From Amoebophrya sp. A120 (lineage: Eukaryota; Protista; Dinoflagellata): a DNA stretch of 64,000 nucleotides. The stretch covers positions 1,328,438-1,392,437 of the forward strand of contig CAJINV010000005.1 in assembly GCA_905178155.1 (NCBI GenBank), read 5' to 3'. The position numbers and the translations under genes were made by a program. A model generated the notes under the pieces. It made no database searches and was not told where the DNA came from. It was given only the letters and a program-made list of their open reading frames with translations. This document shows, piece after piece, positions 5,301 through 50,200 of this stretch (the first letter of the stretch is position 1; every line of letters begins with the position of its first letter).

Positions 5301-6589
5301 GTCCACGTCGTCCACGGGAGCTAGGTATGACATGCAAATATGTCTGGGTCTGGAAGATTCCGAGGCTTGTCATGCAGATTTTCCATGATCCATGTCGTCT
5401 GGAATGCAGGGCCTACTTAGCATGACAGATTCTGTGAGATCCCTATCATGCCTATCCTGCATGAGAAACTTCCTCTCAACTACTTGGCACTCATGCAACT
5501 TTTGGCATTCATGCAACACAGATTTTTGCACGATCCAGAATTAGCATTACAAGCTGCATCCTTCCAGACCCAGTGATTTTTGCAACACATACTTGGTCCG
5601 GCGCGGCGCGGTTCGTCAGCAGCGTCGCCAGCGCACCATTGTACATCACCGCGCGATATCCTGTGCAAAAGTATCGTACTCGTACTAATTGCAGACATGC
5701 ATGACAAATCCAACTTTCTACCTGAAATAGCATGACAAATCGCATTTTTGTTCTTGGGAAAATTTGTAATGCAATACATACTAGTACGATACTTTTGCAA
5801 TGCATACGCGACCCGCTTGCAACCCGAACACCTTCACCGTGGTCTGCCGTTTGGTCAGTCCCGGGATCACCTTCAACGGGCGGGGGTGGAGCTGGTACCC
5901 GATTTTCAGTTTTCTTTCCAGAAAATTCCGCCACAAATTCACCCCGCCGATCTCCTCGAAAAACACGTCGGGGTCTTTCAGATTCGCGTGGGTCTCCTCC
6001 AACAGCATTCCATTCCCGGTGCCAACTTTCACACTTTCCACCCCCGCGTGCAGATGGTACGCCACCTGCGCCCGGGTTTGTTCGAACAGGTCCGTGACTT
6101 CTTTTTGGTAGCCCTGTTTGTAGGAAAAGTCGTGGATCGCGTCCTTGTAGTAGGGTCCGGTGTCTGCGTATGAAAGTGCACAACCCCCCCTCCCCCTCAG
6201 TTCTGTAGCATGAACAGCAACACAGGCGTCAGCAGAAATGCAGGTTTTGCATGACAAACTTGCACAAATAGCACGACGTGCTATTTCGGGTGCCAGAACT
6301 TGTCATGCAAACCGTGCCAAAAGGCAAACACGCTTGGCTATGGTATTTTGCATGACAAATGAGGGGGAGGGGGAGTTCGAGTTGTGCACTCTCTTACTGC
6401 GCCGGCGTACTTTGCTCCCTCCTGAATGAACCACTGGATGGAAACGGAGTAAACTTTTTCGGCGAGCAACCGGAGCGACGGGATAGTTGTGGAGAATACG
6501 TTTTCATCACCGTACCTGTGTCGTGGGTGTATTGTTGGCGTAGTTCTTGCACCATAAAGTCGAACCAACTTGCTCGTTCCCACGAACAT
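2304..6589 (-). CDS. TRAF-type zinc finger / RING-like protein (putative E3 ligase), 4 exons
   Basis: Repeated C-x2-C...H-x3-C TRAF fingers (CPDC...HLSQKC, CPNLGC...HLNHEC, CPQHPAGCGW...HEQIC). Removing three introners joins the frames into VKVFGLQAGRAVMYNGALATLL...RVQVALTNGQTIAVKVRNL. Confidence 0.75.
5326..5591. mobile_element. Introner family A (non-canonical intron)
   Basis: TIR tat...tgtctgggtctggaag / cttccagacccag...cata; TSD ctagg/cttgg; frame restored (PDQ|APVDD). Confidence 0.9.
5657..5806. mobile_element. Introner family B
   Basis: TIR tgcaaaagtatcgtac / gtacgatacttttgca; perfect TSD cgcga; frame restored (LQAGR|AVMYNG). Confidence 0.9.
6169..6396. mobile_element. Introner family C
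   Basis: TIR agtgcacaacc...cctccccctca / tgagggggagggggag...gtgcact; TSD ctgcg. Confidence 0.88.
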
Positions 6590-7043
6590 GTAAAATTGAA
6601 AATCAATCGTGTGCTCGCTTCTTTAGGCGAGCGAGTGACTGTCTATCGTACTATCTATATTCCTGCTTGTAAGTAGCTGGCGATCGGTGTCTAAACCGGT
6701 CACCACCTAGGTCTGGAGAAACACCGCCCGTTTTAGTGGTGAACCAACCGACCTGGGGAGTTGCCCGAGGGAAAGTGAGTCGAGACCCCCAATCACCACT
6801 GGCTTCAGAACGATGCACTACTACCGCCTCCGCAGTGCTTCGCTCAACCTCCGCTGAGCCACAAGGTCCGAAGTAAGCCGCCTCTGCTTACCCTTCCTTG
6901 CGTCAGAACAGGCGCTATAGAAATGCCAGGTCCTAAGCAAGACTCCTCTTCTTGCCCTTCCTGGCTGCGCTACCTGAGCCGGAGCTCTGTACAGCGGTAC
7001 GTAAAATTGAAAATCAAGAAGTAAAATAACGATAAAACAAACT

Positions 7044-8144
7044 TTACTTTCTCTTTGCGTGTTCTTTCTGGAATCTGAGCGGAAGCAAGTCCGCAGCTTT
7101 CTCCAAACAGCACGCAAAATCGAAGTCGAAGAGTTCGTCCTCGTCGGTCATCAAGTCGGTTTTTTTACTGGATGCGGAGGCCAACATTAGCGGCAACGCC
7201 TCCCGCCTCGCACACAGTTTCATCCAGAGCAGGAAGTCCGCACAGATGGAAGCCGGCGTACTGTCCGGATTGTACGCCCCTCGCATGTTTCCCCCGCACC
7301 ACTGCATGTCGTCGTGAACCCGCATGCGGTAGCAGTCGATTAGCCACTCGCACTGCTCCTGTTTGATTTGGAGCTCCTTTGCCTCCGGTGTGAGTTCCCG
7401 TTTTCGCTTCTTATTTCGGATAAAGTGCGCCCACCGCCGCAGCGGACTGTCGCAATCTTTGTCTTGGAGATGCCGTGCCAGTTGCTTGTTGCTTTGCGCC
7501 TTGTTTTTCACGTTGTTCGCCCCGCCGAAGATTCCCTTACTCCCGCCCGCGAAATCGAAGCTGAAGGTTGCCAGGTTATCGTCCTCCATGTTGTTCGCTT
7601 GCTCCAGCAACGTTTTCCGTTGCGCATCCGCGCCATGCCGCACCTCTTCTACCGCGTTCGACTGCTTCAACCCGCTTTGCTCTTTCAACCTTTTCTATCG
7701 CAAGAAAAAACTGTTTCACTGTGAACTTGTGATGCAAAGAGTGGAGCACATGACTATTTGTCTTGCTACACCTGCAAGGCATTGGATTTTTTAGCGTGTT
7801 TTCCCTTGGAAAGCGCGCATGGCAAATTTTCTGTGTCATGTGTAGCAAACTTGTGATGCGGATTTTGCAAAACCATCACAGTGAACAGTTTTTTCGTGGC
7901 ATATTTTCGTCAGGTTCTTGATCTGTAGTTTCGTGAACGACTCGAAGGACTTGTTTTCCTTGACCAAACTCGCCCGGTACTCCGCGGGCGTCCAGTCCGG
8001 GTGTTTTTTAATAAGAGCGGTGAGCTCCGTTTTCAACTTCGCATCGAGATTGGCCGCTGTGTTCATCTCGCTAGTTGCAGTGGAGGAAGAACTTGAGGAG
8101 CTCGAAGTGCCTCCGGCCGCGGTGCTCGAGGCAGAAGAGGACAT
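7044..8144 (-). CDS. Hypothetical protein, 2 exons
   Basis: ORFs 7836-8144 and 7044-7688 join in frame (NLTK|RLKEQSG) after removing the family D introner plus one TSD. Confidence 0.7.
7696..7903. mobile_element. Introner family D
   Basis: TIR tatcgcaagaaaaaactgtttcactgtga / tcacagtgaacagttttttcgtggcata; TSD ttttc. Confidence 0.9.
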
Positions 8145-9345: not shown

Positions 9346-9606
9346 TATCAAATGTAAAAATGTCTGGGTCTGGAAAAGTGTAGACTTGTCATGCAGATTT
9401 TCCATGACCCGTAAGGTCTGAAATGCGGGACTTAGCATGACAGACTCTGCGAGGTTTCCGCCATGCCTGTCCTCCATGAGAAACTCCCTTCCAATTTGGT
9501 CAAAAGTGGACAGCTTTTGGCACTCATGCAACACAGATTTTTGCATGCTGGAGATTTACCATGACAAGTTGCAACCTTCCAGACCCAGACATTTTTGCAA
9601 TCCATA
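9346..9606. mobile_element. Introner family A copy in apparently non-coding DNA
   Basis: Family A TIRs; TSD cagac on both sides. Confidence 0.88.
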
Positions 9607-9686
9607 CAGACACCAGAAAGCATCTATGGAAAATTCCGAGGTAAAGTCGAGGATTCCTTCGACGTGTACGTGGTAATCACAATATA

Positions 9687-9895
9687 TATCGCAAGAAAAA
9701 TCTGTTTCACTGTAAACTTGTGATGCATAGAACGGAACGCAAATGCGTTTGTCTTGCTACACATGCAAGACATTGGATTTTTAGCTGTGTTTTCCCTTAG
9801 GAAGCACGCATTCCAAGTTTTTTTTGTCATGTGTAGCAAACTTGTGACGCAGATCTTGCAAAATCATCACAGTGAAGCAGTTTTTTCGTGGGATA
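9687..9895. mobile_element. Introner family D copy in apparently non-coding DNA
   Basis: Homologous to 7696-7903; TSD atata on both sides. Confidence 0.88.
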
Positions 9896-10308: not shown

Positions 10309-13138
10309 TTAGTCCCGGTGCTGGTTCTTGTCCCAGATCGTGCTTGGATCCGGCTCCACACCAAACAACAGCGGCTTATGGCGTTCTCAACTGTTACATT
10401 CTCAACTGTTACATGAGTTTGTCATGCGAAACTACCATCATACATTATCCGCACGATGTAGCTGATTCGCATAAAAAATCTACGAACAAGGGCTAAACAG
10501 CACCGCAATCTGTGCGAAATTTGTAATGCTACGTGTGCAGCCTCCCCCTTTTGACTTTTGCGATAATTCTCGCATTACATATTCGTGTAACAATTGAGAA
10601 TGTAACGTTCGAGAATGCCATACGGTTCCTTGCCGTGCCTGTCCTGCGCGGTCAGGAGCGACACCCGCGAAGTGATGGTGACGCCGTCTGGGGAGGGGCG
10701 GGAACAGTACGTGGGGGACGTGGTCTGCATGCTGTCGAAGAGAGAGTACAGACCTCCTCCGCCCGCCAAAGTGCAAGAACTCGCGTCCGAGGTATCGTTA
10801 TGCATTGCAAAAGTATTTGTATTGTATCGCAGCAGCAGTGATTCTGATTGCATCACAAATTGTTCTTCCAGGAGGAAAGGTGGAATTTGTCATGCAGAAA
10901 ATAAATTAGGTTGCAGTATCGAAGCACGTGCCCATCTGCTATGCCATTGGTTACAATTATTACTATGTATTAGTACGAGTACGATACTTGTTTTGCAAGC
11001 ATGCGTAAAAATCGTTGAAGGACATCAACTTGATGTTGCTCCCGGCCACGATGTACTGGTTGTGAAAATCCAAGTCCATGCCAAACTATTGCAATGAAAA
11101 ATCCCCCCTCCCCATATCGAAAAGGCACGTCCCAGAAAATTTGTCATGCTGATTTGTGACCTCAAATCGTCTCTGTCTTGCAAGAACGCAACCGCACAGG
11201 CTCTGCCGCACTCTGTTGGCGGTTTGTGATGCTGTTGGCCCTACAGACTACACGTTTGCCATGCTCAGCGCCTAGCTCAAAACTTCCCAGTTCGGGCTTG
11301 ATATAAGCCTGCCGTCCTCTCCAGCAAGACAAATCTGATCTGTGTACGCAAATCCAGCATCACAAACTTCGTTTTGATATGGGGAGGGGGGATTTTTCCT
11401 TTTGATACAAACTCGGTGCTCAGCAAACTATCCCACGCCCGGTAGTAGAAGAGCACTCTGCCATATCACAGTGCACAACTCCCCCTCCCCCTCATTTGTA
11501 TTGCATGAACAGCAATACAAGCATCAGCAAAAATGCCGCCTTTGCATGACAGATTTACACTGGATTACAGTGCTATTTGGGATACCAGAACTTGTCATGC
11601 AAACAATGCCAAGAGGCCAAGGGTGGATTGGGTATTTTGCATGACAAATGAGGGGGAGGGGGAGTTGTGCACTGTCATATGCCATATCACAGTGCGCAAC
11701 AAGAACTTCCCTTCTCCCTGACTTCTTGTCCTCACATGGAAAAGAACTACCCCAAAAAATCTCTTTCACTGGCTGAGTTTGCATCACAAGTTCATCCTGG
11801 ACGATCATGGGACCCGAGACAGTCTTGTATCTGTACTACCACTTCTCTTGTCCAGGTGAAAATTTGCACTTTCCATGCCGAAACTGCAGCGTTGCTGTTT
11901 TCACTAGTGTTGCTGTGGATGGTACAACTCCTCTGTAAAAAAAAAGCGGGGGAAGATGAAGTAAAACTCGCTGCGCACTGTCATATGCCGGTCAACGGAC
12001 AATGAAACGGCGTCCCTTCCCAGTCGTTGCTGTACTGTTTATGGCGTTCTCAACTGTTACATTCTCAACTGTTACATGAGCTTGTGATGCAAGAATGACA
12101 AAACTGAAAGGGGGAAGATTGCGCCTTTTGCATGACAGATTTGGCACAGATTCTCACCCTGTTTGTCCCTTCGGGAATTTGTCATGCGAAGCAGCTTGGT
12201 CGCGTCAATTCTGATTGGAATTCTGCATGACAAATGATGTGACAGTTGAGAATGTAGCATCTGAGAACGCCATACTGTTTGGTCTCCATCCATTCGGTGA
12301 GCTCGTTCTTATATGCAGGAGGGAAACTGCAAATGCGCTAGTCTACGTCTGTGATGCGAATATAAAAACCTAGTACCAGAGGGTTGCGTCTGTCATGCTG
12401 GTGATGGATTATATGGCCCATTGCTGTTTAACAACAGCAACACCATAGTTTTCGCAAACTACATGCGCATGGCAAGTTTTCGCTGTCATGCCAGGCAGAT
12501 TTGTTATGCTGGTGTTCTTCGCTTAGAGACGTTACACTTAAGACGACGTTTTTTTTCAGTGGATATCTTGTTTTCCGGTAAGATAACTTCATTCGGTGTC
12601 GCCGAGCACAAACTTTTCACCGGTTTTCCCGCCACATACTTGCCCAACCCATGCAACGCGATCCACGCCGGGTGCGCCGCGAACACGTGGTGCGCGGGCA
12701 GGTCCCCCAGGCGGCAAGCGGACACGGTGCACAGGTACGGGTGGATCTGACGGGTGGCGGGGAGGAGGTGCTTCTGCACGAACTCGTCGTGCGCATTCAC
12801 CACCGCCCAATTGACGCGGCGGCGCCGTTTGGTGTCGTGCGCATGCTTCCAAAAGTGACCGGTGCGAGCAAAAGCGGCAGCGAACAAGGTATTCTCTGAA
12901 AATTAACCATTCCCAATCCCATGCATGCTGTCATGCAAAGCAACGGACGGAATACTAGATTCGGCTCCTGTACTGCAAAAATTGGCTTCGGATGGTGAAT
13001 TTTCAGGAAATACACGGCTTTCGACACCCGCGTGTGCTTCTCACGACTCTTTGGCTGTTGGTTTTTCGGGGTCTGAAAGGACTGCTCGTGGTCGCTCTCG
13101 CTTTGCGTGGTATTTGTCGAGCTGCCCGACAGCGACAT
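10309..13138 (-). CDS. Hypothetical protein (~290 aa) split by 8 introner insertions
   Basis: Removing each element plus one TSD gives one open frame: MSLSGSS...KAVFAAAF...PENKNELTEWMETKQYSNDWEGTPFHCPLTGRVLFYYRAWDSLLSTEFGMDLDFHNQY...GKEPLLFGVEPDPSTIWDKNQHRD*. No family recognised. Confidence 0.75.
10377..10622. mobile_element. Introner family E
   Basis: TIR tatggcgttctcaactgttacattctcaa / ttgagaatgtaacgttcgagaatgccata; TSD cggct/cggtt. Confidence 0.88.
10799..11010. mobile_element. Introner family B (reverse orientation, degenerate end)
   Basis: tatgcattgcaaaagtat...gtacgatacttgttttgca; TSD atcgt; frame restored (SFN|DTSD). Confidence 0.75.
11087..11407. mobile_element. Introner family F
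   Basis: TIR gaaaaatcccccctccccatatc / gatatggggaggggggatttttc; TAT/ATA ends; TSD caaac. Confidence 0.88.
11464..11679. mobile_element. Introner family C (left member of tandem pair)
   Basis: Family C TIRs; TSD tgcca on both sides. Confidence 0.9.
11685..11985. mobile_element. Introner with C-like ends (right member of tandem pair)
   Basis: tatcacagtgcgca / tgcgcactgtcata; TSD tgcca/tgccg. Confidence 0.85.
12040..12274. mobile_element. Introner family E
   Basis: Family E TIRs; TSD ctgtt. Confidence 0.88.
12312..12565. mobile_element. Degenerate introner
   Basis: TAT/ATA ends, weak TIR, TSD tctta/tcttg; frame restored (ENK|NELTE). Confidence 0.7.
12890..13012. mobile_element. Short introner (123 bp)
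   Basis: TIR tattctctgaaaattaacca / tggtgaattttcaggaaata; TSD caagg/cacgg; frame restored (KAV|FAAA). Confidence 0.8.
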
Positions 13139-13971: not shown

Positions 13972-16900
13972 TCAGTTAAACCGCTTGTTCAGTGTCGTGT
14001 TGTAGCTTTTTTTCAGCAGTCCCTTCGACACCTCGTACGCGCCGGGTCCCGGCGCCATGGCTTTCTTGTTCGGCCGCAGACTCTGGGACTGCGCGGGGAC
14101 GTGACCGAGCCGCGGTCTGGTCGCGTCCGCGATCTCCCCGAACACGTGGGGAGTGTACTCCCCAGGCCCGGGTTTTTCATCGTATTCCCCACCGGTCGCG
14201 CGGCTGGAGCTGCTGCCGAAGGAAAGATGGTCGGTTCTGGGGAGCCGGTACGGATTGCGGTAGTCCGTTTTGATCTTCGGATCGTACGCACCCGGCCCGG
14301 GGCCTTGAAAGCGCTTGTTCCGTCTTGTTTGGTTCTGTTGCGGTCCGGTGGGTGGTGCTCCGGGGTGGGCGTTTTGGGTCTGCTCCACCGCGAGCCGGGA
14401 TGCAGGGCGGTTGTTATCTGTTATTTTTTTCGATATAAAAGTAGAAAATGCAGCTTTTTCATTGTTTATCGTGGTTTCGCTTTCTCGACGACGTCGGGAA
14501 CATAGATTGCTTGCGTGTCTCTGTCTCACGTCGGTGTTGTAGTTTATCTGTGAGAAATCAGCTAGAGTATTTTCTTTGCAACGAGGCCCATCTCGTCACA
14601 TACTACCTGCCTCCGTCCCGCCCGCATGCGCTGGCTGCTGCGTGCTTGTTGCAGGCGGTTTTCTCGTTGGTCGCACTGGTTTCCTCTGCCGAAATTCGTC
14701 ATCGCCGTCGAAGCGAAGAGATGTGCTTTTGAACATGCTGCTTTCGCCACCGTAGAGCGAATCTTTCGGCGGCGAGCTGGACATAGACCTGGGGGATCAT
14801 AGGATACTAGTATTCCAGATGTACGACGACCAGCATGACAGTAGAATCTAGAAACAGTGAATAATTTGTTCCACGCACATAGCACGATCACAACTTCTGT
14901 ATCTGCCCGCCAAAAAAGATTTAAAGACATAGACATGCGTAAAGGTGCGCGTGCGCAACACATAACCATCATTCTGTACTCCATCTCTAGCAGGCTGCCA
15001 AAGCCGCCCTGCTCCGGTTTCTGCGGCGGAAATCTTTCCGCTCGGGAGCCGAACACACCGAGCTTCCCCACGGACGCTTTTTGCTCGACTTTCGCGGTGA
15101 TGCTGCCGTAGAGCTTGTTTATGTTTTCGTAGTAGGTGCCGGGTGGTGGTGCCAGCTCTACCGCGCGGTCTTTGTGACAGCTGCGCACGTCGCTGCTGCA
15201 GAAAGCCGAGAGAGGGACCCCTTCCTGTAGTGAGAGTGTGATGTGAGGACTTTTTTATGTTTCAAAAGCGATCAGTATGTATGAGTATGAGCGTAAGTAA
15301 TATTTCGAAGCTGGACTGCACAATCACGTTCTTTAATGGTTGGTATGATTCTTAGGTGTAACACAGCATATATCATAATTTTGAATACCATTTCCTGCAA
15401 CGCCATTATCACAGCCGGGTTGTGCACGCCAACGAATTTGCTTTTTTTCTTGGGTCCAGCACTTGCCTCTACGCGGTACGCCCCGGGGCCTGGAACTGCC
15501 TCTGCTTTATCAAATGTAAAAATGTCTGGGTCTGGAAGATTTCTAGATTTGTCATGCATATTTTCCATGAGCCATGATGTCTGTAATGCATGGTCTGGCA
15601 TCACATATTTTTAGAGGCCTTCCTGATGCCTATCCCGCATGACAAATGCCCTCCCCGCGTAGCACAAACTGGGCTCCTATTGCTGGTCATGCAAGACAAT
15701 CTTTTTAGAGTCCAAAGCTAGCATCACAAGTTCCAACCTTCCAGACCCAGACATTTTTACATTTGATATGCTTTCTTGTCCTGCAATCTTGCTACTTTAG
15801 ACCCAAAGTCGAAGCGGTCGATCACCCACTTGGGTTTCGGATTTATCGTGGCCTCGTGGTACCTGGGTACGATTATGGAAGCATTTATTTTCGTTACTTT
15901 TCCCGCTTTTTGGCATGGAAAAGGGCTCGGGGTAAGCACGGAGGCACGAAAAAAAAACATCCAATACTCCCCCGGTCCTGGGCCCGTTGCAGTCGTCGTC
16001 TTTTGATTTCTCTGATACGGCAGCAATGTTTTTGACTTGAACTGGAAGCTTTCGTGATCCACAGGCTCCTCTTTTATCGCTGGTATTTGGTTGTACTGCC
16101 CAGGGCCCGGGGTTTCTATCGAGCCGCCCCCGCCTGGGGTTGGACGAAGCACTTTCGAGGAATGGAAATCCGAGCCGCGTTTCGGTTTCGTTTTTGACTT
16201 GTCTGGGTGGAACTGGTCCCGTTCCAGCTCTTCCTGTTTTGGAATTGATGTTCAATTATTTTTGTACTTAAACTTATTTCTGTTGCATGCTAGTATGGGA
16301 AAAGGAAGTCGTCATACGAAAGTTGTCGTTCAGATGCAGAAGTCCCATCATCTCAAGCAATAGAAGGTCGTTGTTCATCACAGTTAAATTGTCAAGAACC
16401 TGCAGCTTCTCCCTAACGATTTCGTCTCTTTGCAGCAGTTGATCCGGCACGGAGGGTATGAGTTGCAAATATGTGGTCTGGGTCTTGTTCTGGAAACCGA
16501 AACTTGTGTTACTGAGTCCTGCATGATTAGCACCTTTCCTCATACAGCCAAGCATGACAAAATTTTGGGATACAAGTCGTCACTTTTGAAGACCACTGGC
16601 ACTAGAAGTCGTCACTTCATCTCAAGATCCAGACATCTATGCATTCCATAGACGGTGCGGTTTTACTCGACAGCACCAATCCCCCGGTCCGCTGCGGCTC
16701 CGGCTGCTTTGGCCTTTTACTCGACGAGCTGCTCGCGCCGATCTCATAGGTCCCCGGCCCCGGCGCATCTACCGCGGTTCCTAACCCGCCGAAATCCCCT
16801 AATCTCGGTGCGGAAGAGCGGAAGTCCGCGGACCCGGCGAGAATCTCCTTGTCCGTCGGCAATCCGACCGGAACGTCGTACGCACCCGGTCCCGGTGCGC

Positions 16901-17324
16901 CACCCTTCTATGACCCGGTCAGACGTTACAATCTCAAGCGTTACAATCGAATATGGAAATCTGTGACGCAAGAGGTGCATGATCTAACCAAGTCTCATAG
17001 GACTGCGCATGACAAGTTCCGGAGTCCCAAACCGCACTACAATCTGCCGAAATTTGTATTGCAAAAGGTGGAACGCTGTGCGAGTCTGTCATGCTCATTA
17101 TGCAACACAAATTCGAATTCCAGAATCTATTGTAACGTTTGAGATTGTAACATCTGAGCAAGCCATACCTTCTTCACCGAGTTTCTATCTGCCATGGAGA
17201 GAAACGGGGCGCCCGTTCCGGGGGCCGCGCCGAGGGGGGCGCGCACATCGTACGTCCCCGGGCCGACGTCGTGGGGCCCGCGCTCCGTCGGGAGACGCTC
17301 GGAACGGGTCAGCGTGAGCGCCAT
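13972..17324 (-). CDS. Sperm-tail PG-rich repeat (SHIPPO/STPG-like) flagellar protein, multi-exon
   Basis: Many PGPG(A/T/E/Q)Y repeats across exons (VGPGTYD, APGPGAYD, PGPGQYN, PGPGAYRV, PPPGTYY, PGPGAYDP, APGPGAYEV). Internal exon boundaries only partly resolved. Confidence 0.8.
15508..15768. mobile_element. Introner family A
   Basis: 31-bp TIR tatcaaatgtaaaaatgtctgggtctggaag; TSD tgctt. Confidence 0.92.
16457..16650. mobile_element. Degenerate family A-like introner
   Basis: TAT/ATA ends; gtctgggtcttg / caagatccagac; TSD gaggg/gacgg. Confidence 0.72.
16909..17167. mobile_element. Introner, E-related family
   Basis: TIR tcagacgttacaatctcaagcgttacaat / attgtaacgtttgagattgtaacatctga; TSD ccttc. 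Confidence 0.85.
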
Positions 17325-18977: not shown

Positions 18978-21900
18978 CTACATCTATCCTGTGCAAAAGT
19001 ATCGCACTCGTAGTAACAGCAATTGCATTTATGCATTACAAATCTCTTTCGCTTTCCCAAGGTAAATCAGCACTACAAATTCAATTTGTAATGCTGGGCT
19101 AATTTGTAATGCATTTATACGATTACGATACTTTCGCAATTCATAACATCAGCTTCACCTCCCCGGCCTTCGAAGCGATGTCCATCAATTTCTGTTCCTC
19201 TTCCGGCGACTATAACAGTGCACAACTCCCCCTCCCCCTCATTTGTGTAGCATGAACGGCAATACAAGCATCAGCAAGAGTGCCGGTTTTGCATGACAAA
19301 TTTGCAGTGGAGCATGGTGCAGCTATGTGGGCTACCAGAACTTGTCATGCAAACAGTGCCAAGATGCAAAGGGTGGATTGGGTATTTTGCATCACAAATG
19401 AGGGGGAGGGGGAGTTGTGCACTGTCATAGCGACCGTCTCGGGTACTGCCGTAGCAGCATGTGCTGCATGTCGCTACTCCGCCTCCGCGCGGCCTCCCCC
19501 GCCCGCAGCATCACGTCCCCACCGGACACGCTGTAGTCCCGTCCCATGTTCACTTCCGGTTTGAACTTCGATCTCGTATCCAACGACGGTTTCAAACCCT
19601 CCCGCTTTATCCTCGCTTCTCTGTTCGCTTCGAGATCCAGCAAGAACCTCGCCTTCTCCGGGGAAGAAATATGCCGTTCCGGACTCGCCGCACCGTGGGT
19701 CTTGTCTGCGCGGAACCTGGCCGGCATGGTTTGCCGCAGCCAATCGACGTTCTGGGACTCTGGGAGGGTTCCCTTCTCCTTCGTGAGAAAGGATTCCCAC
19801 TTCCGGATCTTCAGCATCTCCCGGCTCGGGTCTTTACTCACCCGGGAAATCGGCTCCGCGATGGTTTCTTTCAGCTGCGCCAACCGCTGCTCCGCGGGCA
19901 TGTGGACAGAGGAGTCCTGTTTTTTCCTTCTCCTTTGTTCCTCCGGCTTCTTCGGCTTGAGGTGGTCCGGCGCAAATTCGTCGTAATCCGGGCGCCAGGA
20001 CAGAGATTTCGTGTCGGAGAAGGTGCGTCGCAGAACTTTCTCGGCCAGTTTCCCGGTGGTCTGCTGCGCCTGCTGGGCGGCGTGGGTCGTGGATTCTTGT
20101 CTCCCGTAAAGGCGTTCGAAGTTCCACTCGTTACTGGCTTTGGTCAGCCGGTCCGGGAACGGGATTTCGGACAGTTTGATCTGCTTCCGGCTTTTCTTGC
20201 CGGGGCCACCTGATAGAAAAGAATTGCCGAATGAAGTTGATGAAGCGGAAAAAGTCGTGAGGCGGACAAGTTGCATATGCAAGAATAGATTGGCAGATGG
20301 CTTGTGCTTGGTCATGCATCTATCTTGCCGTCTGAAGAACAAGATCGAGAATGGATATCATCATCATGAAATTGAATCTTCGCAGCAAAAATAAAAACAA
20401 AATACCAGTCACGCTCCCTCTCTTCGGTTTCAGCACACTCGCCTCTTTGACTTGCGCTACTCCCGGGTCGACCTTCTTCATTGGTTTCCAGTTCGCCACC
20501 CACGGTTTCTCCGTCGTTTGCGTTAATTCCTTGAAGATCGTCAGTGGTCGGAGCGAGTCCGGTTCTGGCGCGGCTTTCACCTGCGATACTGTGTAGGATT
20601 TCACTTCGACCAAGCTGATTCCCTTCGACTTTTCCTGCAACAACTCCGCTTCTCTTCGCTTGTGCTCGTTCTGCAGGTCCTGTTCCGCCCGGAGTTTTCC
20701 GTAGTACCGGTCGTACAGGTGAATCGACGTTTGCATGTACAAAGAGTTCTCCTGCGTCTCCAGCGCTTTGGTTCCGTGGAGCTTGTGCATCACCCGGAAC
20801 CCCTGGTAGGCGAAGAGCAGGGATTGTCGCAAAACTCGTGGCAGGTACCAGGTCAGAGTTTTCGAGGTTGTCTCCGGCCCGAGAGTTAGGGACACCCAGG
20901 GCTTTTTGTAGAACACCGTGTCGGAGAGAATCAGCTTCTGTCTGTCCTCCAGCGACTTCTGGACGAATTTGTGGTCCACCCCGATCTATCAAATGTAAAA
21001 ATGTCTGGGTCTGGAAGATTCTGACACTTGTCATGCAGGTTTTGCATGAGCACTGATGTCTGTGATGCATGCCCTAGCATCACAGATTTTTTGAGAGCTT
21101 CTTGATGCCTATACCGCATGACAAATACCCTCTCCGCGTAGCAAAAATTATATTCCCTTTGGTACTCTTCATGCAATACAGATTGTTTTGGAATCCAAAT
21201 GCAGCATCACAAGTTGCATTCTTCCAGACCCAGACATTTTTACATTTGATACGTTCAACTCATCTTCCCTATCCCTCCCGTCCGATCCGAAAAAGGTATC
21301 TAGCGGCCAGATCTTCACGTCACCAGCTTCACCGCAGCTAATCAACGCGTGCACGCCTGGAACTATTCTCAGGGAGGAAATCTTCCCGCTGTCGTGCGCC
21401 TTCCAGGTGCAGATTGTTTCCCTATGAATCACCAACACCTTTCCGCCGAACACGTGCGTGGTTGTCGGCGTGGCGTGCGCGATGTCCGGCGTCATCGTTT
21501 CTGGGGTCGTCCCCGCAGGTACATTCGAGGCGGACGCGTAGAGCCTCCTTGGAGTTACCCTTTCCGGGCGGATTTTCACGAGCGAAATCTCGCCCTTCTC
21601 GTTCCCCAAAGCGATGATGCAGGACTGGTCTTTCGACTCCGTGTAGGGCTGCGGCTGTTTGAACAAATCCTTCGCGCGCTCCTTGTACTTCACGCGCCGT
21701 TCGTAGAGGTCTCTTGGATCTTTCACGCGCTTTTTTGTGACTTTCGGAATTCCGGAACTGCCGGACGGACTAGCCGGGGAAGACTCACCGCCATGGTCCG
21801 GCGACGGCGCAGCTGCTGCTGCTGAATCTTGTTGTGCCACTGCCGCTACGGCTGCATTTGATGATGGTTTCGCTTCCGGTTCGTCGTCTGTGTGGTGGGT

Positions 21901-27900: not shown

Positions 27901-28880
27901 GGGTCTTCGTCACTCCTGGCCCAGTGTGCAACAACAATTTCATCTACAGCAAGGACACACATGCAGCATCGACATCGGCAGCCATCGGGTGCCATATGAT
28001 TACGAGCGAATTACTTATCATCACATTCTGTGCTGTGTGAAAAGTGGAAAGTCATCGTACAAGTGCGTGAGGTCGTACTTCGACTTCTCACTCTGCTATA
28101 TTGTCGGCACATTTTTGATGAGTGGGTGTGGTTCTGAATCCGAATCCGAATCCTAATCCTATTCCATTCACGCATCGCATGACAAACAAAAAGCGAAGCA
28201 ACAAAATCCTATAAAATACTGTCCTCCGTTGTTTCCGGCAGCTCCCTCCTGTTTGTCTCCGTTATCATCTTGTTTTTTCTGCGTTCGGATCTTCTGGCGT
28301 ATGAAGTGGTCCGTTACCAGAGACCAGGGCAGCTCCCCGAAGTCCTTTACCTGCTCCGCGTGCTGCGTCGCTACTTCCTGGAAGAGCACGCACAAACTCT
28401 CGACGTAAGACTTTTCCTCCCCCTTCTTCACGTCCGAATGCTGCCTCGCAAACTGCCACACGAGCTCGACAAAGGCGAGTAAGTCGATGCACTCGGGCCG
28501 AGCGCGATTGGCTAGCAACGGTTCGATATCAAATGTAAAAATGTCTGGGTCTGGAAGAATGCAAGTTTGTCATGCTTCTCTGGCATGACTCTTAAATCTG
28601 TCATGCACATTACCAAAGAGCCCCACTTTTCTGTCATGCAGAAACGTAGTTTGTCATGCAGAATAGGCAACACCTAGAAGCTCAGAAACCTGTCATGCTG
28701 AGCCAGCAATTGTGGCCTCCTCATGATACGCCACACAGCATCACAAGTTTCCAGACCCAGACATTTTTACATTTGATATTCGATTCTCTTCACCAAGGAT
28801 GCGTCCAGGAAGGACAGCGTGTCACTGGTCTGATACACGCGGTACAGATCACGCTTCTTACTGCCACCGGCTCCCGACAT
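18978..28880 (-). CDS. Large WD40-repeat protein with an N-terminal EF-hand-like region (WDR49/CFAP337-like), many exons
   Basis: WD40 signatures (LRGHMDQVVQV...ASASYDSNVLLWD, LRGHISGLT...CDDVGYIRLWDL, WKAHDSGKISSL...GDVKIW) and an N-terminal LFQEV...LPWSLV segment. Consecutive minus-strand ORFs are joined by introners and GT-AG introns. A single gene is inferred, not proven. Confidence 0.7.
18985..19145. mobile_element. Introner family B at the stop codon
   Basis: Family B TIRs; TSD acatc. Confidence 0.85.
19211..19429. mobile_element. Introner family C
   Basis: Family C TIRs; TSD gcgac. Confidence 0.9.
20987..21251. mobile_element. Introner family A
   Basis: 31-bp TIR; TSD cgatc/cgttc. 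Confidence 0.92.
23212..23797. mobile_element. Introner family B enlarged by a nested ~440-bp insertion
   Basis: Family B ends; TSD tccgc at 23207-23211 and 23798-23802; removal gives in-frame SAGVKWR|KYGNNLGF. Confidence 0.8.
23289..23395. repeat. Exact 52-bp tandem duplication (55-bp period)
   Basis: gtgggatgagcaattccttctgcggaggagtgaaggcgcccgaatcatggag at 23289 and 23344. Confidence 0.9.
23860..24110. mobile_element. Introner family A (reverse orientation)
   Basis: Family A TIRs; TSD tcatc; frame restored (NIAM|MQSDK). Confidence 0.9.
28527..28778. mobile_element. Introner family A (reverse orientation)
   Basis: Family A TIRs; TSD ttcga; frame restored (KRIE|PLLAN). Confidence 0.9.
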
Positions 28881-33561: not shown

Positions 33562-33597
33562 CATACCATGCGGTCCGACGTCGGACCGCATGGTATG
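33562..33597. repeat. Perfect 36-bp palindrome (imperfect copy at 30846-30883)
   Basis: cataccatgcggtccgac|gtcggaccgcatggtatg. Confidence 0.9.
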
Positions 33598-35164: not shown

Positions 35165-36775
35165 TTAGATCAATGCCCACTTTTCTCGCAGCAGCTTCTC
35201 GTGCAGTGGCGCCTTCCAAACCGGTCCTCCGCCCATGAGCATCAGTTCGTGGCTGCTGCACGGCGCCGTTGCTTCGTAGTCGCACTCCAGCTCTGCGTAC
35301 ACGTCCGTCACCAGCCAGCGCACCGCTTTCGCCGGCGTTAAACGGTCCTTCTCGGAGGAGCCGAACACGGTGAAAAAACTCGTCTTCCCTTTTTTCTCTT
35401 CTCCCTCCTGCCGAAACGCATCCGCCAATCCTTTCAGTTCCTTCGCCAGCAGCACGCAGTCGTCTTGCCAAACCAAAGAGGTCGAAACTTCCAGCCCTTT
35501 CGCAGTGTCCTTACCCCCCTCCACGCCCATCGCATCGAGCACCCGCCCGTTTTGCTCGAAGTCATACTTGTTGGCAACACACGATCCCGAGGACACCGAC
35601 CCCACGCTGGCAATAAACATCTCTTTCTCCTCACTCGAGAGGGCGGTTCGCAGCATCTTCGCGCTGGAGTTTCCAAAGGAGAACTGCACCAAGGGTTTGC
35701 ACAAGCCCTGACCCACGCAGGCGACGCCGCTCAGCACACTCGTCGGGACGTACTTCGAGGCGAACCGGGCGAGGCCGAACCCGTGCGGTCCCGCTATGGC
35801 GTTCTCAAACGTTACATTCTCAACTGTTACATGATTTGTCATGCAAAACTTCCATGAACCACCAGACAATCAAGCCACCTCGCATGACAAATCCCCGAAG
35901 GGCTAAACAGCGCCTAAATCTGTGCCGGATTTGTGATGCGAGAGTTGCAAGCTTGCCTCTTTCACTGTTGCGGTTCTTGCATCACAAATTCATGTAACAG
36001 TTCAGAATGAAACGTTTGGGAACGCCATACCCGCGGGCGAGGGGTACGGCACGTTCAGGGCAACGCCGCGGAGATCCGGGAGTTGTTTCTGGTGGGACTC
36101 GTGCGACAATTGCAGTTGCAGAAAACGCCGCAGAAACACCACCGCGTACGGGTGGCCAAGACAGCAGGCGTACACGAACATCTCGTCCAGGGCTTCTTGC
36201 TGCAACACGGCGAGGCAGTTCCGCGCGTGCAAATTCAGGTGGCGCTTCACGGTATCGTCCGCAGAAAAGGTCGGGTTGTTCACCACCTCGGGGGAAGTCT
36301 TCCCAAGCCCGGGACGGTCCACGGCGATGACGACCAACTCATTCGATGGCTTTTTAGACGCGGATGTGTGCGCGTTGGTAAGAACGCCGTCAGGACACCC
36401 GAGGCCAGATCCAGCAGATAAGGCTGCGGCAAAGTTCGAGTTGTCCTCCTGCTTCGTAGACAAGCCTTTCATCGTAGTTCCAGGAGCAGAACTGTTTTCT
36501 TGGAACGGCGCGAAGAACTCAATCACATTGCTGTCGGCGCCCATAGCGTGGAAGACGAGGATGGCAGTTTTCTTTTTCTGCCCTTGTTCTTGGGCAGCTC
36601 CCTGCTCATTCATCGGGGTTTGTCCGGCCTGGTGTCCCCGCCGAAGGGAGAGCACTCGATAGCCCACAGTTGTAGTTCCATTCCCGTCCTCAACATCGCG
36701 GTACTGGACAACACGCTCCTCAGAGCAGCGCCAGGTGTTGGGCATGTTGTTTGGAGAAGTGTTTGAAGTAGACAT
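35165..36775 (-). CDS. Alpha/beta-hydrolase fold protein, 2 exons
   Basis: ILVFHAMG, VIAVDRPGLGKTS, elbow region YACCLGHPYA, C-terminal FGSSEKD...SHELML; frames join over a family E introner. Confidence 0.75.
35795..36029. mobile_element. Introner family E
   Basis: Family E TIRs; TSD cccgc. Confidence 0.9.
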
Positions 36776-38979: not shown

Positions 38980-41900
38980 TCACTTCGCCACGTCGTCTTT
39001 CCCGAGCTCCACCTTCCGACGTTTTCTTTCCAATTTCGCTTCTTCCTCCTGCGCCTCTTCAGCCCTGGCCTCTTCTCCGCGCAGCTCCAACTTTCGTTTT
39101 TTCCGTTCCGCCTTCGCAGCCTCTTTCTCCTCCTCTTTCCTTTTTTCCTCTTCTTTCAGCTTTGCCGCTTTGACTTTGGACTGCGCCCGGAGCTGCTCGT
39201 CCGCAGCCCGCTGCTTCAAAATTGCCTCCTCGTGCTCCTTCGTGATCTGCTCCTCGATCGTGTCTTTTGCCACAAACCGGAGGACCTTCACTCTGTCGCG
39301 CTTTTGCCCGAACCGCCGCGCCCGGGCGATGGCCTGCATCTCGGCAGCGCGGGCGGTGTTGAGGTCGCCATTCATTGGGTGGACGAAAAGAACGTGGGAG
39401 GCCTGGAGTGTGTGATTGGTATAAGGAGTTTTGATGTGAATCTTGCATGGATGTATATTACGCATGCAAGTCATCACTGCCATTTTGTACTTATGCTGAG
39501 CAGTAGAAGCAGACCTGTGTCCGACCTTGCACCGCTTTCATTCATGCAATCTCCGCAAAAGCATATCAAAAATGCAAAGCGCGTAGATACAGAGTGAGCA
39601 TTTAGGCCAGATAGTACCTGTGTCAAGTTTGCCCCAGCTGCACAACGCTCCAGCGACATCAACAAAATATCGGGATTTTTTCCAATTTCGCTTCTCGATC
39701 CAAGCACGATGTCCTTTCCATCCGACTCCTTTTGGAAGTTTTCCAGTAGCTGCGCCTGCCGATCTGCAGCTGTTTTGTAGTTTGTGGTCGTTTTTTATTT
39801 ATCGATGACCTTAATATTAGTTTGAGCAGCATGTTGAGTAATCTGGGTGGGCAGTGGATTCCTGGTTACATGAGTTTCGCGCTTCAGGCTCAATGTCATT
39901 CATTCAACACATCAATAAACAGGAACAGCTCTTCTCTAGTACTTGCTCCGAACAGCGAGACGAAGTTGAATCCGAATTCGGTGAAGCAGTGCCGCACGAT
40001 CTTCAACAGAGACTCCCACTGCACGAACACGATGAACTTCGCCTTCGGGTCTTTCGCCCTTTCCTCCTGAATCGTGGCCGCGACTTTCTGAATTTTGGTC
40101 CCAAACACGCTGTGGTCCGTCACGCGGCAGGCCGGTGCAGATTTGTCGGCCTTTTTCGTGTCAAACGCCTTCTGCGCGTCCACGAGCGGCACGCACTGGT
40201 CTATTGGGCGAAAAGGAGTGCGGCATGTCGGGCACTGCTTTTCCTGCTTGTTCAGCGCAAGAGCAGGGTCGATGGGGTTCAGCATCTTGATGCAGTCCTG
40301 GCAGAACTGGTGGCTGCAGGGAAGCAAAACGGCCATGTCATCGTCGGTGAGATCTTCCGCCGCACAGATGATGCAGCGTTCTGCTTCAGCTTCTATGCAG
40401 GGGCTAGCTGCTGCGACAGCCTCGAATGGGACACGGTGCTTCAGATCAATTCGTCATACAGAGTTGTACGCATGTGCTGGTGTCCTCCAGTTGTCATATA
40501 ATATTCAGGGTTCGTCGATGAACAGCATTCACATCTTTTTTCTAAAGACGACCTGTCATGCGGACATCAGAGCTACAGGCACAGTATTGTAGACTTTTTT
40601 GCGACGTTTGGTTTATACAAGACCATGACAAACTCCAGCACCGCCGGGTGTACATTGTTCCAGTTGAGCTTGTCACATCTGAGCAGGCCGTATCTTCGTT
40701 TTCCGTACCGCAGCCTTTGGTCAACTGCTTGAAAAACTGCAAGCGCGAAATGGCGCTCCGGAGCTTTTCCAGAGCGGCGCTGAACCGGTGCATAAACTTT
40801 CCGCGGTGCAATTCAAATATGACATTTTGTTTTTCAAGTTGTTGTTCTCTCTCGATCTGCTGCTGGTCGTTAAAATCAGTAATTCTAACTTGGGTGAGAG
40901 AATGGCGCAGCTGAACGCAGCAGATCATCGTCCTTAGTTCGGACTTCAACACTTCTTCTTCAAGGCTTTGGTTTCGGGTTTTCAATGTTCTCAGGGCACT
41001 GGCTGGCGACGCACTTCCGTTTATTCCGCCGTCAAGATACTTTTTGTCCGGGTCTGTGAGGCGCAATCGTTCGTCCACCGCTTCCAGGTTCGCAAACTCG
41101 CTCTTGCCAGTTTCTGCTTTGATTGCTTCTGTGACTGCTTTGCTTTCCGGAGTCGAGTCAGATGCGAGTGCGCGCAGCTTGGCGTGCACGCCGTTTGGCA
41201 AGAATTTAGGTTCGACTTCGAGTTGCTTTCGAATAGAAATCGGCTCTGAACCCGCATCCTCCCAGGCTTCGACGTTCAGATGCCCGTTGGCACACAGAAA
41301 ATCTAACGCCTTCACAACGAGCAAAACGTTTGCTGATAGGTGTCGGATCCTGCTTCGTTGTGTCCGCAGCTCGAGCTGACAAGCCTCGACTGGTGTTAGA
41401 AGCCGGCCGCTCTTGCTCGTGCTCGCCACCGTGCCAAAGTGGCTGCAGAGACGCAGGAGCTCGGCGCGCTCCTCGGGGGCCTCGGAGATAACTGCGGAGG
41501 AAAGTAGTTGGGGGTTCAGCCGGTACTTCTCTTGCTCGTACAGCGCGCGCTCGGGCTGGGTCAGCTGTACTGGTATTTGTTTTTCCTCGAGCTGGATGCG
41601 GCCCACTTCCTCAGGCGCCGCATTTCGCCGGGCGAAGGTGGAGAGGAAGTTCTGGGCGTTGCGCGTCCAGATGCGGGACCGGTCAAGTGCGTGCTCGAAG
41701 GGGCCGTACAATTTTTTCAGGTGGCCCTGCCTCGCCGAGACAGCAACCTCAATTTGCTTGTAGTAGAAGCAATAGCGGTAGTTGTCAGCTGCCATTTCCC
41801 GCTCTAGAAAAGCCTGTTTCTCTTCTTCATCTTCGTCGGCGTCTTCTACTTCTTTTCGATATCCGCGCAATTTTTCCATAGCGCTGATCCTTTCATCATC

Positions 41901-46410: not shown

Positions 46411-47213
46411 CTTGTTTTGTAGTTACGATCGATGTGGTATCAGTAATTGTGCTAGCACTAGCAGATGAGGAGAGAAGTCGAGCCTAGTACTGCATTGAGC
46501 TTCTGCAGCCACCGTGAAAAGCCAAAACCCGTAGTGAGTGGTGCATCCACCGGCCTTCCAATGAATTCAATTTCTAGTTTCTATCTGATAGCAGGTCTCC
46601 CATGATGTGAAGTTAGTTCTTGTGAATCTTCACAGGAGCCGCTAAAGCGTTGAAATTAGCCTGAATATACTTCTTCCTTTCTCGTAGTTTTGCGGAACAA
46701 GAACCTCATTTACGAGCGCAAGAAATACTAAGCCATCTAGTGATCGGACGGATCCATGATGGCGCAGATGTGGGAAGCGTAGCGACATCAACAAATTCAA
46801 ATTCAAATTCACAACCGCACCAAAATACTAGAACGAGCAGCGAGATCAAAGTCCGGAACAAATGATAGCACGCCTGCTAGTAGATAAGCAACCTCTTTCT
46901 TACATCGACAGGGACAGCAATCAGGAACAGCGCATATACACATTGATCTTCTTATTTAAGGTTCTTTCAACAACGTGAACGCGCAAGAAATGCAACAAGT
47001 GCTTGACTTTCAATTCGTCTTCCTTCATCTTGCAGCTGTTTGTTTTTGTTTTATCTTCTACGAATGAATGCAGCACTCAGAATCAAGTTGAGTTCTTCAT
47101 TGGTGATGACAATTTCGCAGACGTACTAGGCTTCATCTTGCAACGGAATCGTGCATAATCAGAGTGCACCAGAGCAGCTTGTCAGCCTCAGCTCTCCTGA
47201 GAACGACCTCCAC

Positions 47214-50200
47214 TCACGTCTCCTCATGCTTCATCGCCAGCTGTGCCATGGTCAAGAACTCCGCACAGGTCACGCCCCCGAAATGGTGCGGATCGTACTT
47301 CCGCAACAGAATCTCTAGGAGCTCCCGCGGCACGCACCGCCGCAGGTCGTGGAAGGTCACCACATACGGGGTAGTCACGCTGTGCAAGTCCACTTCTAGC
47401 GATTTTCCTTCCCGAATCCGGTGCAAATCGGATAGGTTTTCGGTTTGTCTGTCGGTCGTGCGAAGGCCTGCGCTATTTCTATCGAAATTAATGTCGTTCC
47501 GCACATCAAACTTGTTGTTGTTGTCGATTGTTGCGAAGTCCAGTTCTTTCTGGAACATTTTCTTGCTTCCAAGAGATGAACCGCTGCTCTGTCCCAAGCC
47601 GCCGCCAGCTCGCCGCGAAGAAACGGAGCTCGATCCCTGATGCAATTTCACGGCCTGCTGCCTCTTGGTCAGGGGGCTCAGAGACTGCGCTTTGGATGGA
47701 GAGGTGGAACGATTTTTGGCGCTTTCTTGCAGTCTTATTTGCTGCTTCGTGAGTTGGCTCTGAAGAGGTGGACGACCGTGAAGATGTTCAGAAGGTGAAG
47801 GGAATGGATTCACAATCTCATCTCCATAAACTCGGCTCTTCCGTTCATACAGCTGTTTGTGATCCATGCTGGTCACGTTCGATTCCAGGTGGTGCCCCGC
47901 CGGCTGGCTCAGCAGCTGCACCATCCGTCGCTCCGTTGCGGTCTTGGCGTAGGGGTTGGGCTTTAGGCGAACTTTCGTCGGGGAAAGCGATTTGCTGCGG
48001 ACAGCGGTGGGAGAATTAGAATTCATACCACTTGAATGGTCGCCGTGAACATTTTTCGCCACGTTCAACACACCGTGCAGCAGGCGCGCGAAAACGTGGA
48101 TCAAGTCGTCTTCGGAGTACTCGCCGACGGCTTTCCTGCGTAAAATCCGGTGGTATTCCAGCAAACCTGATTTTTCCAATTGCTTTTGCTCGGAATCCTC
48201 CATCGTCTGCCGTATTTGCGTTAGCGTGTTGTTGAACTGGTCCCGATTTTGGAACTTGTCTTGCTGGTGAAACGGATGCTGGTCGGTGTTTGTCGTTCCC
48301 GCAGGAACATGTTGATCTGTCCCGCCACCGTAATTGTCGACCTCCACTAAGTACGCATTGACGTTCTTGAAGTCCACGTTGTCCGTTCCTGCAAAAAGCG
48401 CCCGGTCACTGTCAGCCGTCGACATGTCGATGATCGTGTTTTTCCGAGGATGCTCTCGCAACAGCAGCTCCTCAACGACCGCTGGGTCAGTTCGCCGCGA
48501 TTCCGGCGCCGGAATCCGCGGCAATTGTCGACGAGAGGCACTGGAATTCAAATTCTCGTTTTTTCTCGTCGGTGAAGCCGAGGAAAAATCGTTTCTCACC
48601 ACCTTTCTGCCCGTTTTCTCATCCCATTTCACCTGTCTTCTTGCCAACAGCCGCTGTGCTTGCGGACTTGGACTCCTCGGGTAAAAATTGTCGGCAAGGT
48701 GAGCCTGCGTTGCTTTCTTTTCTTCAATCGGCAAGTACCTCTGCACCTCTGATTCCAAGCGATTTACCATCTGTCTCGTCGGCACCAGCTCTTGAAACGG
48801 CGTCTCGTTACGGAGAATACCGCCTCGCTGCCGGGCGTGCAGGTCTGCCGCGGTACGGAGATTGGGAGATTTCTGGATCGGATCCGGCTTGTTCGTGTCG
48901 GCCATCGCGTGGCGTGATCGTTCTTCGTCTTTCGCTTGCAGAAGCGGATCTTGTTCTCGTGCATTTGCGGCTTGCTGCACGTGCACACCAACTCCATCTC
49001 CAGCATCTTCTCCCTCCTCCCTTTCCATATTCCCCCCACCGCCACCACCTCCAATTTGACACTCTTTCTTGGCCGCTTCCCGCAAAAACGCGAACTTCTG
49101 CTCGTGCCGTTCCAGCCACTGCTCCACCCACTCCTTCCTCTTGTCCTTCTGCTCAACCTTGATTTTTAGCGACACTGTCGCCTCGGCTTTGCCGATGATC
49201 TGCGCGACCAACATCTTCACGGAGTTGTTCACATAGAGCAATTCTCTTTCCTCATCCAAAATCTTCTGCTTGGCTTCATCTGATTTGTCCGTGTATTTTG
49301 AACTCAAACTTCTCGCTTTCGCGGAGAAAGGGTTCATCTGTTGACTCACAGAAGTTATCTCGCCGTCCTCCGGCAATCGTCCGCCGTCGGTAGTTGCTCC
49401 TGCTCCATCCGCGTCTTGCTGGTTCTCAACAGCAGCACCAGCACTATCATTCCTCATCCACTTCTCCTGCAAAGCTTGTCTCTGTTCCTCTCTCGCTTGC
49501 TCCACCTCCTGGTCCTCGTTGTTATTCCCCAGTAGTCTCGCCGCAACCTCATTCGCCATGTGATCGTATGCAAGAAAAAAACTGTGTAAGTGTAAATCTG
49601 TGATGCAGAAAATGCCAAACAGTTACACTTGTCATGCTCGACATGCATGACCGGTTCGTTTCCTATGTCTTTTCCCTTTGTATCTGCGCATAACAAGTTT
49701 GTCCTGTCATGGCAGACAAACTTGTGATGCTGTTTTCCCAAAAGACTTACACTAACACAGTTTTTTTCTTGGATAGATCGGAGTCGTTCATCAAACGCTT
49801 TCTCTCCTTCCTCTGCTTTTCCAATTCCCGCCTTTCCTGCCCCAGCTCGTTCACGAAATCCGCGTGGAGCAGCTTCCTTTTCAGAAAATCGTTTTCCTGC
49901 ACCTTCTTCACGGTCCACTGCCCCGCGAACCGCAACACCTCGCTGGCGGCGGCGGTCATGAGGTCGTCGGGGATGATTGGCGATCGCATGCCGATTTGAG
50001 GTGTGGACGCTTCGGAGAAAACCGGCGCGGGGTTTTCGCGGAGGAGGTTACCGAGATGCAGCGGGTCGTTCCGCAGGACGATGGAACGGGGGGAAGGGAG
50101 ATGAAACAGAGATTGGTCCTCGTCGGAAGGGCCAGAAGTTGCACCTTTCTGTGCTTGATTCCCAGTTGTTGCGACGTTTTCGTTTTGTGCAGCTAGCTCC

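Follow-up and report, generated by a model that had tools for sequence, protein, structure and literature searches.

The 64,000-nucleotide stretch of Amoebophrya sp. A120 analysed here (contig CAJINV010000005.1, positions 1,328,438 to 1,392,437), called the window in the following, contains 25 short elements, of which 22 were obtained from inverted-repeat scans while the limits of three aged copies (6169, 10792 and 12310) were set by eye. These elements are introners of Amoebophrya, an already known class of mobile introns. They carry several copies of an internal word, TTGT(C/G/A)ATGC, a genuine cis-element of this class that seems not to have been described.

A scan without preset ends recovered inverted-repeat elements of 120-590 bp which start with TAT, end with ATA and lie between 5-bp direct repeats. 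A pattern scan of metagenome contigs with a three-motif pattern retrieved 115 loci, 106 of them in a single assembly from a close relative. Of the nine others, four were examined, two being tandem repeats and two apparent chance matches. In 40 of the 106 relative loci, an unbiased scan showed that 84 of 96 pairs of terminal inverted repeats (TIRs) with a 5-bp repeat are of the TAT..ATA type; in the scan behind the end logo, TAT was imposed. Window and relative together provided 381 distinct elements, which fall into 17 clusters of at least three members, plus 34 in smaller groups. A reading made from the sequence alone (the sequence-only reading) had considered the TIRs of the families to be unrelated. 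This is contradicted by the end logo, where the TIRs share TAT, a C or G as the fourth base (0.94) and an A-run from base 11 to base 15, with clusters 2, 11 and 13 deviating from the A-run. In many TIRs, bases 3-13 resemble a degenerate, outward-facing version of the motif, from which the outward sites located at 33-36 and 45 are about three and four helical turns away.

Locus L054 of the relative is orthologous to window positions 4480-11055 with 92-99% identity. Three elements present in L054 are missing from the window, where a single copy of the 5-mer stands. These filled and empty orthologous sites identify the 5-bp repeat as a target duplication caused by insertion, and they show that two families have moved since the window and the relative split. 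A TA duplication (mariner type), which had been suggested by eye, is ruled out by the 5-bp repeats (lengths of 2-3 were outside the scan). The target duplications have no sequence preference (flat composition, 301 sites), and no G or AG bias was found within the duplications of 156 coding insertions.

Introners leave transcripts at non-canonical ends, without GT-AG. In contigs of run X6, presumed to represent RNA, six TIR elements are skipped as exactly the element plus 5 nt and nine introns are removed at GT-AG (15 of the 20 joints listed). A gene model that cuts 16457-16650 plus 5 nt gives exactly the 2,477 nt of the contig, with an open frame of 612 codons. As the nine commonest non-canonical intron classes of A120 all start with N-T (Table S4 of Farhat et al. 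2021, PMC7789003), the introner TAT may occupy positions +2 to +4 of a 5′ splice site whose +1 base is free. Canonical donors within window 14418-26620 begin with GTAT in 5 of 10 cases and with GTA in 9 of 10. The elements and the motif-bearing introns are listed here with coordinates, strand (a dot where none is assigned) and motif offsets.

5326..5591 (.), TIR introner, cluster 3 (the main family of the sequence-only reading); offsets 42+, 94-, 133-, 187-, 218-; orthologous copy in L054
5657..5806 (.), TIR introner, cluster 0; motifs 42-, 73-, 108+
6169..6396 (.), aged cluster-1 element; right end TTA instead of ATA; 5-bp duplication intact; 3 exact motifs retained
7696..7903 (.), TIR introner, cluster 5; motifs 32+, 63+, 121-, 156+
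9346..9606 (.), TIR element, cluster 3; 4 matrix matches
9687..9895 (.), TIR element, cluster 5; motifs 32+, 63+, 138+, 156+
10377..10622 (.), TIR introner, cluster 2; motifs 43+, 145+, 195-
10792..11005 (.), aged element similar to cluster 0, ends decayed; 2 exact motifs; approximate limits
11087..11407 (.), TIR element, cluster 7; 6 matrix matches including 3 pairs at 32-33 bp
11464..11679 (.), TIR element, cluster 1; 5 matrix matches
11685..11985 (.), diverged TIR element adjoining the 11464..11679 element; 1 motif
12040..12274 (.), TIR element, cluster 2; motifs 43+, 90-, 140+, 185-
12310..12567 (.), aged cluster-8-like element; 4 matrix matches; approximate limits; profile match with E 1e-14
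12890..13012 (.), short TIR element; single motif 39+
14789..14979 (-), canonical GT-AG intron without TIR; one CTGTCATGC at 14833; bin depth 43 in DNA contigs (single-copy)
15508..15768 (.), TIR introner, cluster 3; X6 contigs skip the element + 5 nt
16457..16650 (.), aged element with decayed TIR; 1 exact motif; presumably removed as element + 5 nt
16909..17167 (.), TIR introner, cluster 13; 5 matrix matches
18985..19145 (.), TIR introner, cluster 0; skipped as element + 5 nt
19211..19429 (.), TIR introner, cluster 1; skipped as element + 5 nt
20987..21251 (.), TIR introner, cluster 3; imperfect duplication; 5′ cut 0-2 nt upstream of TAT, sense strand
23212..23797 (.), cluster-0 introner with a motif-free insert of ~435 bp; skipped whole as element + 5 nt
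23860..24110 (.), TIR introner, cluster 12; skipped as element + 5 nt
27486..28219 (-), predicted GT-AG intron of 734 nt without TIR; strong motifs at 27712 and 28177; open frame restored in silico, no RNA joint seen
28527..28778 (.), TIR introner, cluster 4; 6 matrix matches
35795..36029 (.), TIR introner, cluster 2; motifs 42+, 87-, 137+, 184-
40390..40650 (-), probable intron of a SNF2-domain gene; 1 strong motif at 40553; ambiguous ends
49567..49775 (.), TIR introner, cluster 8; motifs 32+, 63+, 78-, 121-, 156+

The window has 56 copies of TTGT(C/G/A)ATGC, while the mean of 100 shuffles is 1.48 and none of them exceeds 6. All but three of these matches (53 of 56) are inside the 25 elements, which account for 6,128 of the 64,000 bases (~10% of the window; binomial p 2e-50). 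The remaining three are found outside elements, at 28177, 54601 and 57874. The enrichment and concentration in introners claimed by the sequence-only reading are thus borne out, and the positions 5367, 5699, 6300, 7727, 10419, 11141, 23720, 35836, 49629 and 28177 carry the motif with a shift of at most 1-2 bases, while two of its non-TIR positions correspond to CTGTCATGC forms at 14833 and 40553. The longer word is A-W-Y-Y-TGT(C/G/A)ATGC-(A/T/G), with C preferred over G and A at the central variable base. RNA-supported parts of the window were scored with a weight matrix, where 12 bits define a strong site and 10 bits a weaker one. At 12 bits, there are 24 matches in TIR introns (1,773 nt), distributed over all six of them, but none in nine canonical introns (1,493 nt) and none in 15 exons (7,623 nt). 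The respective numbers at 10 bits are 27, 2 and 1, in agreement with the scarcity in exons that had been noticed by eye. Zero matrix matches were obtained in the other mobile inserts of the window (6590-7000, 23265-23700 and 29330-34510) and zero sites in two of its intergenic stretches.

The motif is common to all families. Each of the 374 elements not longer than 400 bp has a matrix match and 341 have at least three (mean 4.2). A plain 7-mer count finds the core in at least 60% of the members in 15 of 17 clusters, most elements being bystanders of the search. When motifs and ends are masked, the interiors align for only 4 of 136 cluster pairs (z at least 10); one further pair reaches z 6 and the rest do not exceed 4. 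Within families, motif core columns are conserved at 0.95 and the interior at 0.77. As the motif occurs in all families while so few interiors align, recent common descent does not explain it. This supports the proposal of one shared trans-acting factor. Where that proposal left a choice between a transposase and a host factor, the evidence suggests that it may have both roles.

The copies are placed with a fixed geometry. There are near-zero matches in the first ~31 bp of the elements (bases 10-28 are essentially empty), except for a degenerate copy at base 3 of some ends. Inward-facing sites are most frequent at distances of 32-34, 42-44 and 52-54 bp from the end. Spacings between sites of the same orientation are most often 31-33 bp, with further accumulations near 53, 74, 84, 94 and 124. 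For 71 non-redundant spacings of this kind the best period is 10.4-10.5 bp (R 0.55, compared to 0.29 at 11 bp), with p 3e-4 under a free period search, and the signal persists without the peak at 30-34. The spacers of the 31-33-bp pairs are only ~30% alike, so that these pairs are not tandem duplications. With respect to the gene, 332 sites in elements are sense and 287 antisense (the gene strand was callable for 142 of 346 clustered copies). Outside elements, 33 are sense and 27 antisense, with the strand taken from GT-AG predictions which are unreliable and were used for this purpose only. Spacing and placement on either strand are what would be expected of sites bound by protein along a single face of the B-form double helix. 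Helical phasing together with strand indifference makes a DNA-binding protein more plausible than a splicing code in RNA. The motif is not a general splicing code of the host, which had also been considered, as the strong site is found in none of the nine RNA-supported canonical introns (two of nine at 10 bits) and there is no strand bias.

Motifs persist after insertion. In 66 copies which lack a TAT or ATA end, 64 of 75 motifs have been kept compared to 56 of 98 control sites in the TIRs, while the numbers for young copies are 308 of 337 and 349 of 420. We also analysed 71.8 kb of low-GC DNA from the relative, which remained once all detected elements had been masked along with BLAST and profile matches, relaxed TIR pairs and the edges of loci. 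In this residual DNA, TGTCATGC is the top 8-mer (22 copies where 2.6 are expected, ~8-fold). The G and A forms are at background (5, with 4.6 expected), yet they represent 47% of the sites in young elements. One-mismatch variants are barely raised (57 vs 49), and a model of neutral relics is rejected for the residual sites (p 4e-4). With a looser mask there are 41 copies where 3.8 are expected; according to the profile search, part of this excess represents aged elements. The suggestion of the sequence-only reading that sites without TIRs mark aged introners is therefore only partially supported. Several residual sites could be recovered by the profile search, but most have no detectable homology and retain the best form intact, unlike neutral ageing. 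One intron proposed to be such an aged copy, that of 14833, has GT-AG ends, and the depth of its bin is that of single-copy DNA. That the best form is kept in dead copies as well as in unique non-coding DNA suggests that the host needs a protein bound there.

We tentatively favour, as quite possible, that one DNA-binding protein is used in transposition and has been retained for a role in the host. A 5-bp staggered duplication at random targets is typical of DDE enzymes of the integrase type, and such an enzyme is our candidate for the introners. Its footprint would be the first ~30 bp of the element. The motif copies (3-6 per element, at whole-turn spacing) would be the binding sites of one protein that recognises double-stranded DNA. 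Being phased on one helical face further in, they would allow this protein or domain to help pair and cut the element ends. Phase would matter for the spread of the element and not after insertion. The host would continue to use the bound protein, which may mark introns on the DNA for removal during transcription. Intron removal is probably the likeliest host role and is the weakest step of the model. We consider it because about three quarters of the placed copies (336 of 456) have coding flanks, because they are cut without GT-AG, and because U1 snRNA was not found by Farhat et al. (2021, PMC7789003), who found no transposase in A120 either.

Several points weigh against this model. Neither the window nor the long elements checked yielded a transposase, no binding protein was identified, and the 415-codon ORF of the long element L023, the one scanned among the ORFs of three long elements, has no Pfam match. 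Residual sites are sparse (~0.3 per kb) and have no 10.5-bp phase (R 0.05 over 25 pairs). In eight orthologous element pairs, 1 of 203 core positions and 19 of 1,083 interior positions are substituted, which is not significant (p 0.23) in a sample too small to reveal protection, and in three of the eight pairs indels have moved the spacing by 3-4 bp. Twelve aged copies with non-coding flanks retain motifs about as well as those with coding flanks, so that retention is not clearly tied to a need for splicing. The data sets have a bias of their own. The weight matrix was trained on the elements themselves, and the loci of the relative were picked by the three-motif pattern. Spacings within one element are not independent, which makes the p-value of the period generous. 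The aged bins blend dead copies with divergent subfamilies, and some of the ends called lost may be alignment errors. The transcript evidence consists of X6 contigs whose RNA nature was only guessed, but which also lack the nine GT-AG introns.

Alternatively, the word could be a subterminal site of the transposase only, the copies outside elements being leftovers of decayed elements without host function. The free zone, the phasing to the ends, the absence from other mobile inserts and the loss of phase after insertion all agree with this, as does the recovery of several residual sites as aged elements. In addition, indels are frequent in the elements and could erase homology sooner than they strike an 8-mer, and integrase-like ORFs have been described for TIR elements of A120 (Gozashti et al. 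2025, PMC12130899). We nevertheless regard it as rather unlikely, because the residual sites have almost purely the best C form, with hardly any rise in one-mismatch variants, and because motifs outlive the TIR control sites in copies that lack an end. An ordinary chromatin or transcription factor of the host, acting for example in nucleosome or nucleoprotein positioning, might have been captured for spread or tolerance without any role in splicing. Intact sites on both strands of unique non-coding DNA and the retention in copies with non-coding flanks are consistent with such a factor, and the word has CATGCA in common with the apicomplexan AP2 site TGCATGCA (PMC4117751). This explanation is improbable, as two intergenic stretches of the window have no site, TGCATGCA is not enriched (4 copies, with 3-10 expected), and phasing fixed to the element ends requires a link to these ends.

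Still less probable is an action of the word in the pre-mRNA, where copies of opposite orientation would stiffen a hairpin, or would be read by an RNA-binding protein, and thereby permit splicing independent of GT-AG. Fold predictions have 43% of the 564 motif instances paired with a second motif, and the paired fraction is 0.78 for motif bases compared to 0.60 for the rest of the interior. Splicing is exact despite the lack of a G or AG preference in the duplications, and the failure to find U1 snRNA in these strains (Farhat et al. 2021, PMC7789003) would fit as well. However, sites have a single orientation in 48 of 374 elements, and in cluster 6 motif-motif pairing is as low as ~1%. A period of 10.4-10.5 across 90-125 nt fits B-DNA rather than single-stranded or A-form RNA, and neither the lack of strand bias nor that of strong sites in canonical introns would be expected. 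The word could finally be an inert trace of one ancestral element that was internally duplicated. A remote common ancestor is likely, given that TAT, A-run and 5-bp duplication are common to all families, and the terminal bases look like a degenerate version of the word that faces outward. As an explanation of the motif this is largely refuted and hardly credible, since the cores are conserved where interiors fail to align and the 31-33-bp pairs have spacers without any relation to each other.

Arrays of short protein-binding sites inside the TIR are known from Ac/Ds, Hermes (hAT), En/Spm, Tn7 and Mu. In hAT and En/Spm elements, Ac/Ds included, subterminal transposase sites occur in both orientations, and Tn7 and Mu generate 5-bp duplications. 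To our knowledge the subterminal sites of all these elements are family-specific and are not kept in host introns, whereas the introner word is common to at least 17 clusters and has been kept in unique DNA. Introners share with hAT the short subterminal sites in both orientations but not the typical 8-bp duplication (one pair at 8 bp vs 96 at 5 bp); a hAT subgroup with 5 bp exists. Transib/RAG elements have CAC termini and a GC-rich 5-bp duplication, which agrees in length, but introners end in TAT and have no clear target bias.

Ginger2/Tdd elements have TIRs, a duplication of 4-5 bp (5 bp in TDD-4/5) and TGTNR ends, and Ginger2 prefers RTATAY targets (PMC2836005). Introners agree in the duplication but have TAT ends, not TGTNR, and a target that is unbiased over the 301 sites, not RTATAY, so that membership in this group fails on termini and target preference. 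Gozashti et al. (2025, PMC12130899) describe TIR introners of A120 with integrase-like ORFs but without Ginger ends, in agreement with the present elements. Their family 38, a TIR element with such an ORF, is a candidate mobiliser, the comparison being by description only. No gypsy-like integrase ORF was found in the window and the long elements checked. The AP2 domain proteins of apicomplexans (ApiAP2) belong to a related alveolate lineage; the introner word, unlike TGCATGCA, is not palindromic, and the possible connection to TGCATGCA is a lead only. In a viral scan, the motif-pair pattern had 55 matches, with 28-47 roughly expected by chance, none of them reported with a TIR pair. Of two viral scans with TIR patterns, one gave 0 matches and the other 11, which lie in a viral sequence that is shared and lacks the structure of an element.

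For A120, Farhat et al. (2021, PMC7789003) describe introners from many families with inverted repeats consisting of TAT, seven variable bases and an A-run, with direct repeats of 3-5 nt and with non-canonical splice ends. The window elements agree in all of this, having TAT + 7 + A-run, 5-bp direct repeats and non-canonical removal. As far as its text goes, that description covers the terminal repeats only, while the internal word, its phasing and its retention outside elements are added here. The terms 'CATG' and 'subterminal' are absent from the main text and 'CATG' from the supplement, while Figures 3, S19 and S25 could show the motif. In the literature searched, figures and most supplements aside, we found no description of internal word, phasing or retention.

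The window contains additional features. At 6590-7000, a 411-bp insertion that is missing in the relative has a ~17-bp direct repeat at its bounds and raised depth in DNA contigs; it is a mobile element of a different type. The motif-free insert at 23265-23700 has a short internal duplication and is located within a cluster-0 introner, the whole 586 bp being removed as one intron. A GC-rich foldback of ~5.1 kb at 29340-34510 has inverted ends of ~70 bp and nested inverted blocks around a centre at ~31,915, and sequence quality may be poor there. An intron-free ORF cluster occupies 53600-62780 on the minus strand, with a YVDD word in one frame and an R..E..H/Y-like pattern in another. By eye, it resembles a tyrosine-recombinase (DIRS-like) retroelement; there was no Pfam match, and structure searches (PDB) with two retroelement-like ORFs were empty. 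Positions 1-2300 and 62800-64000 are of low complexity, with patchy AT- and GC-rich composition and a noisy or repetitive look. In the comparison with L054, coding sequence at 4480-7630 differs by 3-5% while the adjoining non-coding 8150-9345 differs by only 0.5%, which suggests a fast-evolving gene or a recombined segment. Among the genes of the window, a single protein match was obtained, to Amoebophrya sp. A25 (67%), which supports the genus, and a search with the SNF2 region gave nothing at 1e-20. In the relative, three long TAT-ended elements have been enlarged by unrelated inserts (L023 476-2934, L037 4911-6486 and L060 5583-6479). Cluster 3 (window 5326, 15508 and 20987, plus loci of the relative) is skewed in gene orientation (20:5, p 0.004 uncorrected), the other clusters being less so.

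A 12-bp word with fixed geometry that is common to all sampled families makes it directly testable how the tens of thousands of non-canonical introns of Amoebophrya move and how they are spliced, as it can serve as bait in pull-down experiments and can be mutated in a reporter element. The word implies that one mobilising system is behind families which have been filed under diverse superfamilies. It also provides a signature for finding aged introners and for correcting gene models. It is conceivable, although we consider it unlikely, that one and the same protein on the DNA, which might be a domesticated subunit of a transposase, reads the helically phased sites to mobilise thousands of unrelated introner families and, from its position on the DNA template, also directs the splicing machinery to the parts to be removed. 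If this were true, introns would be defined by a mark on the DNA and not by GT-AG or by pairing with U1.

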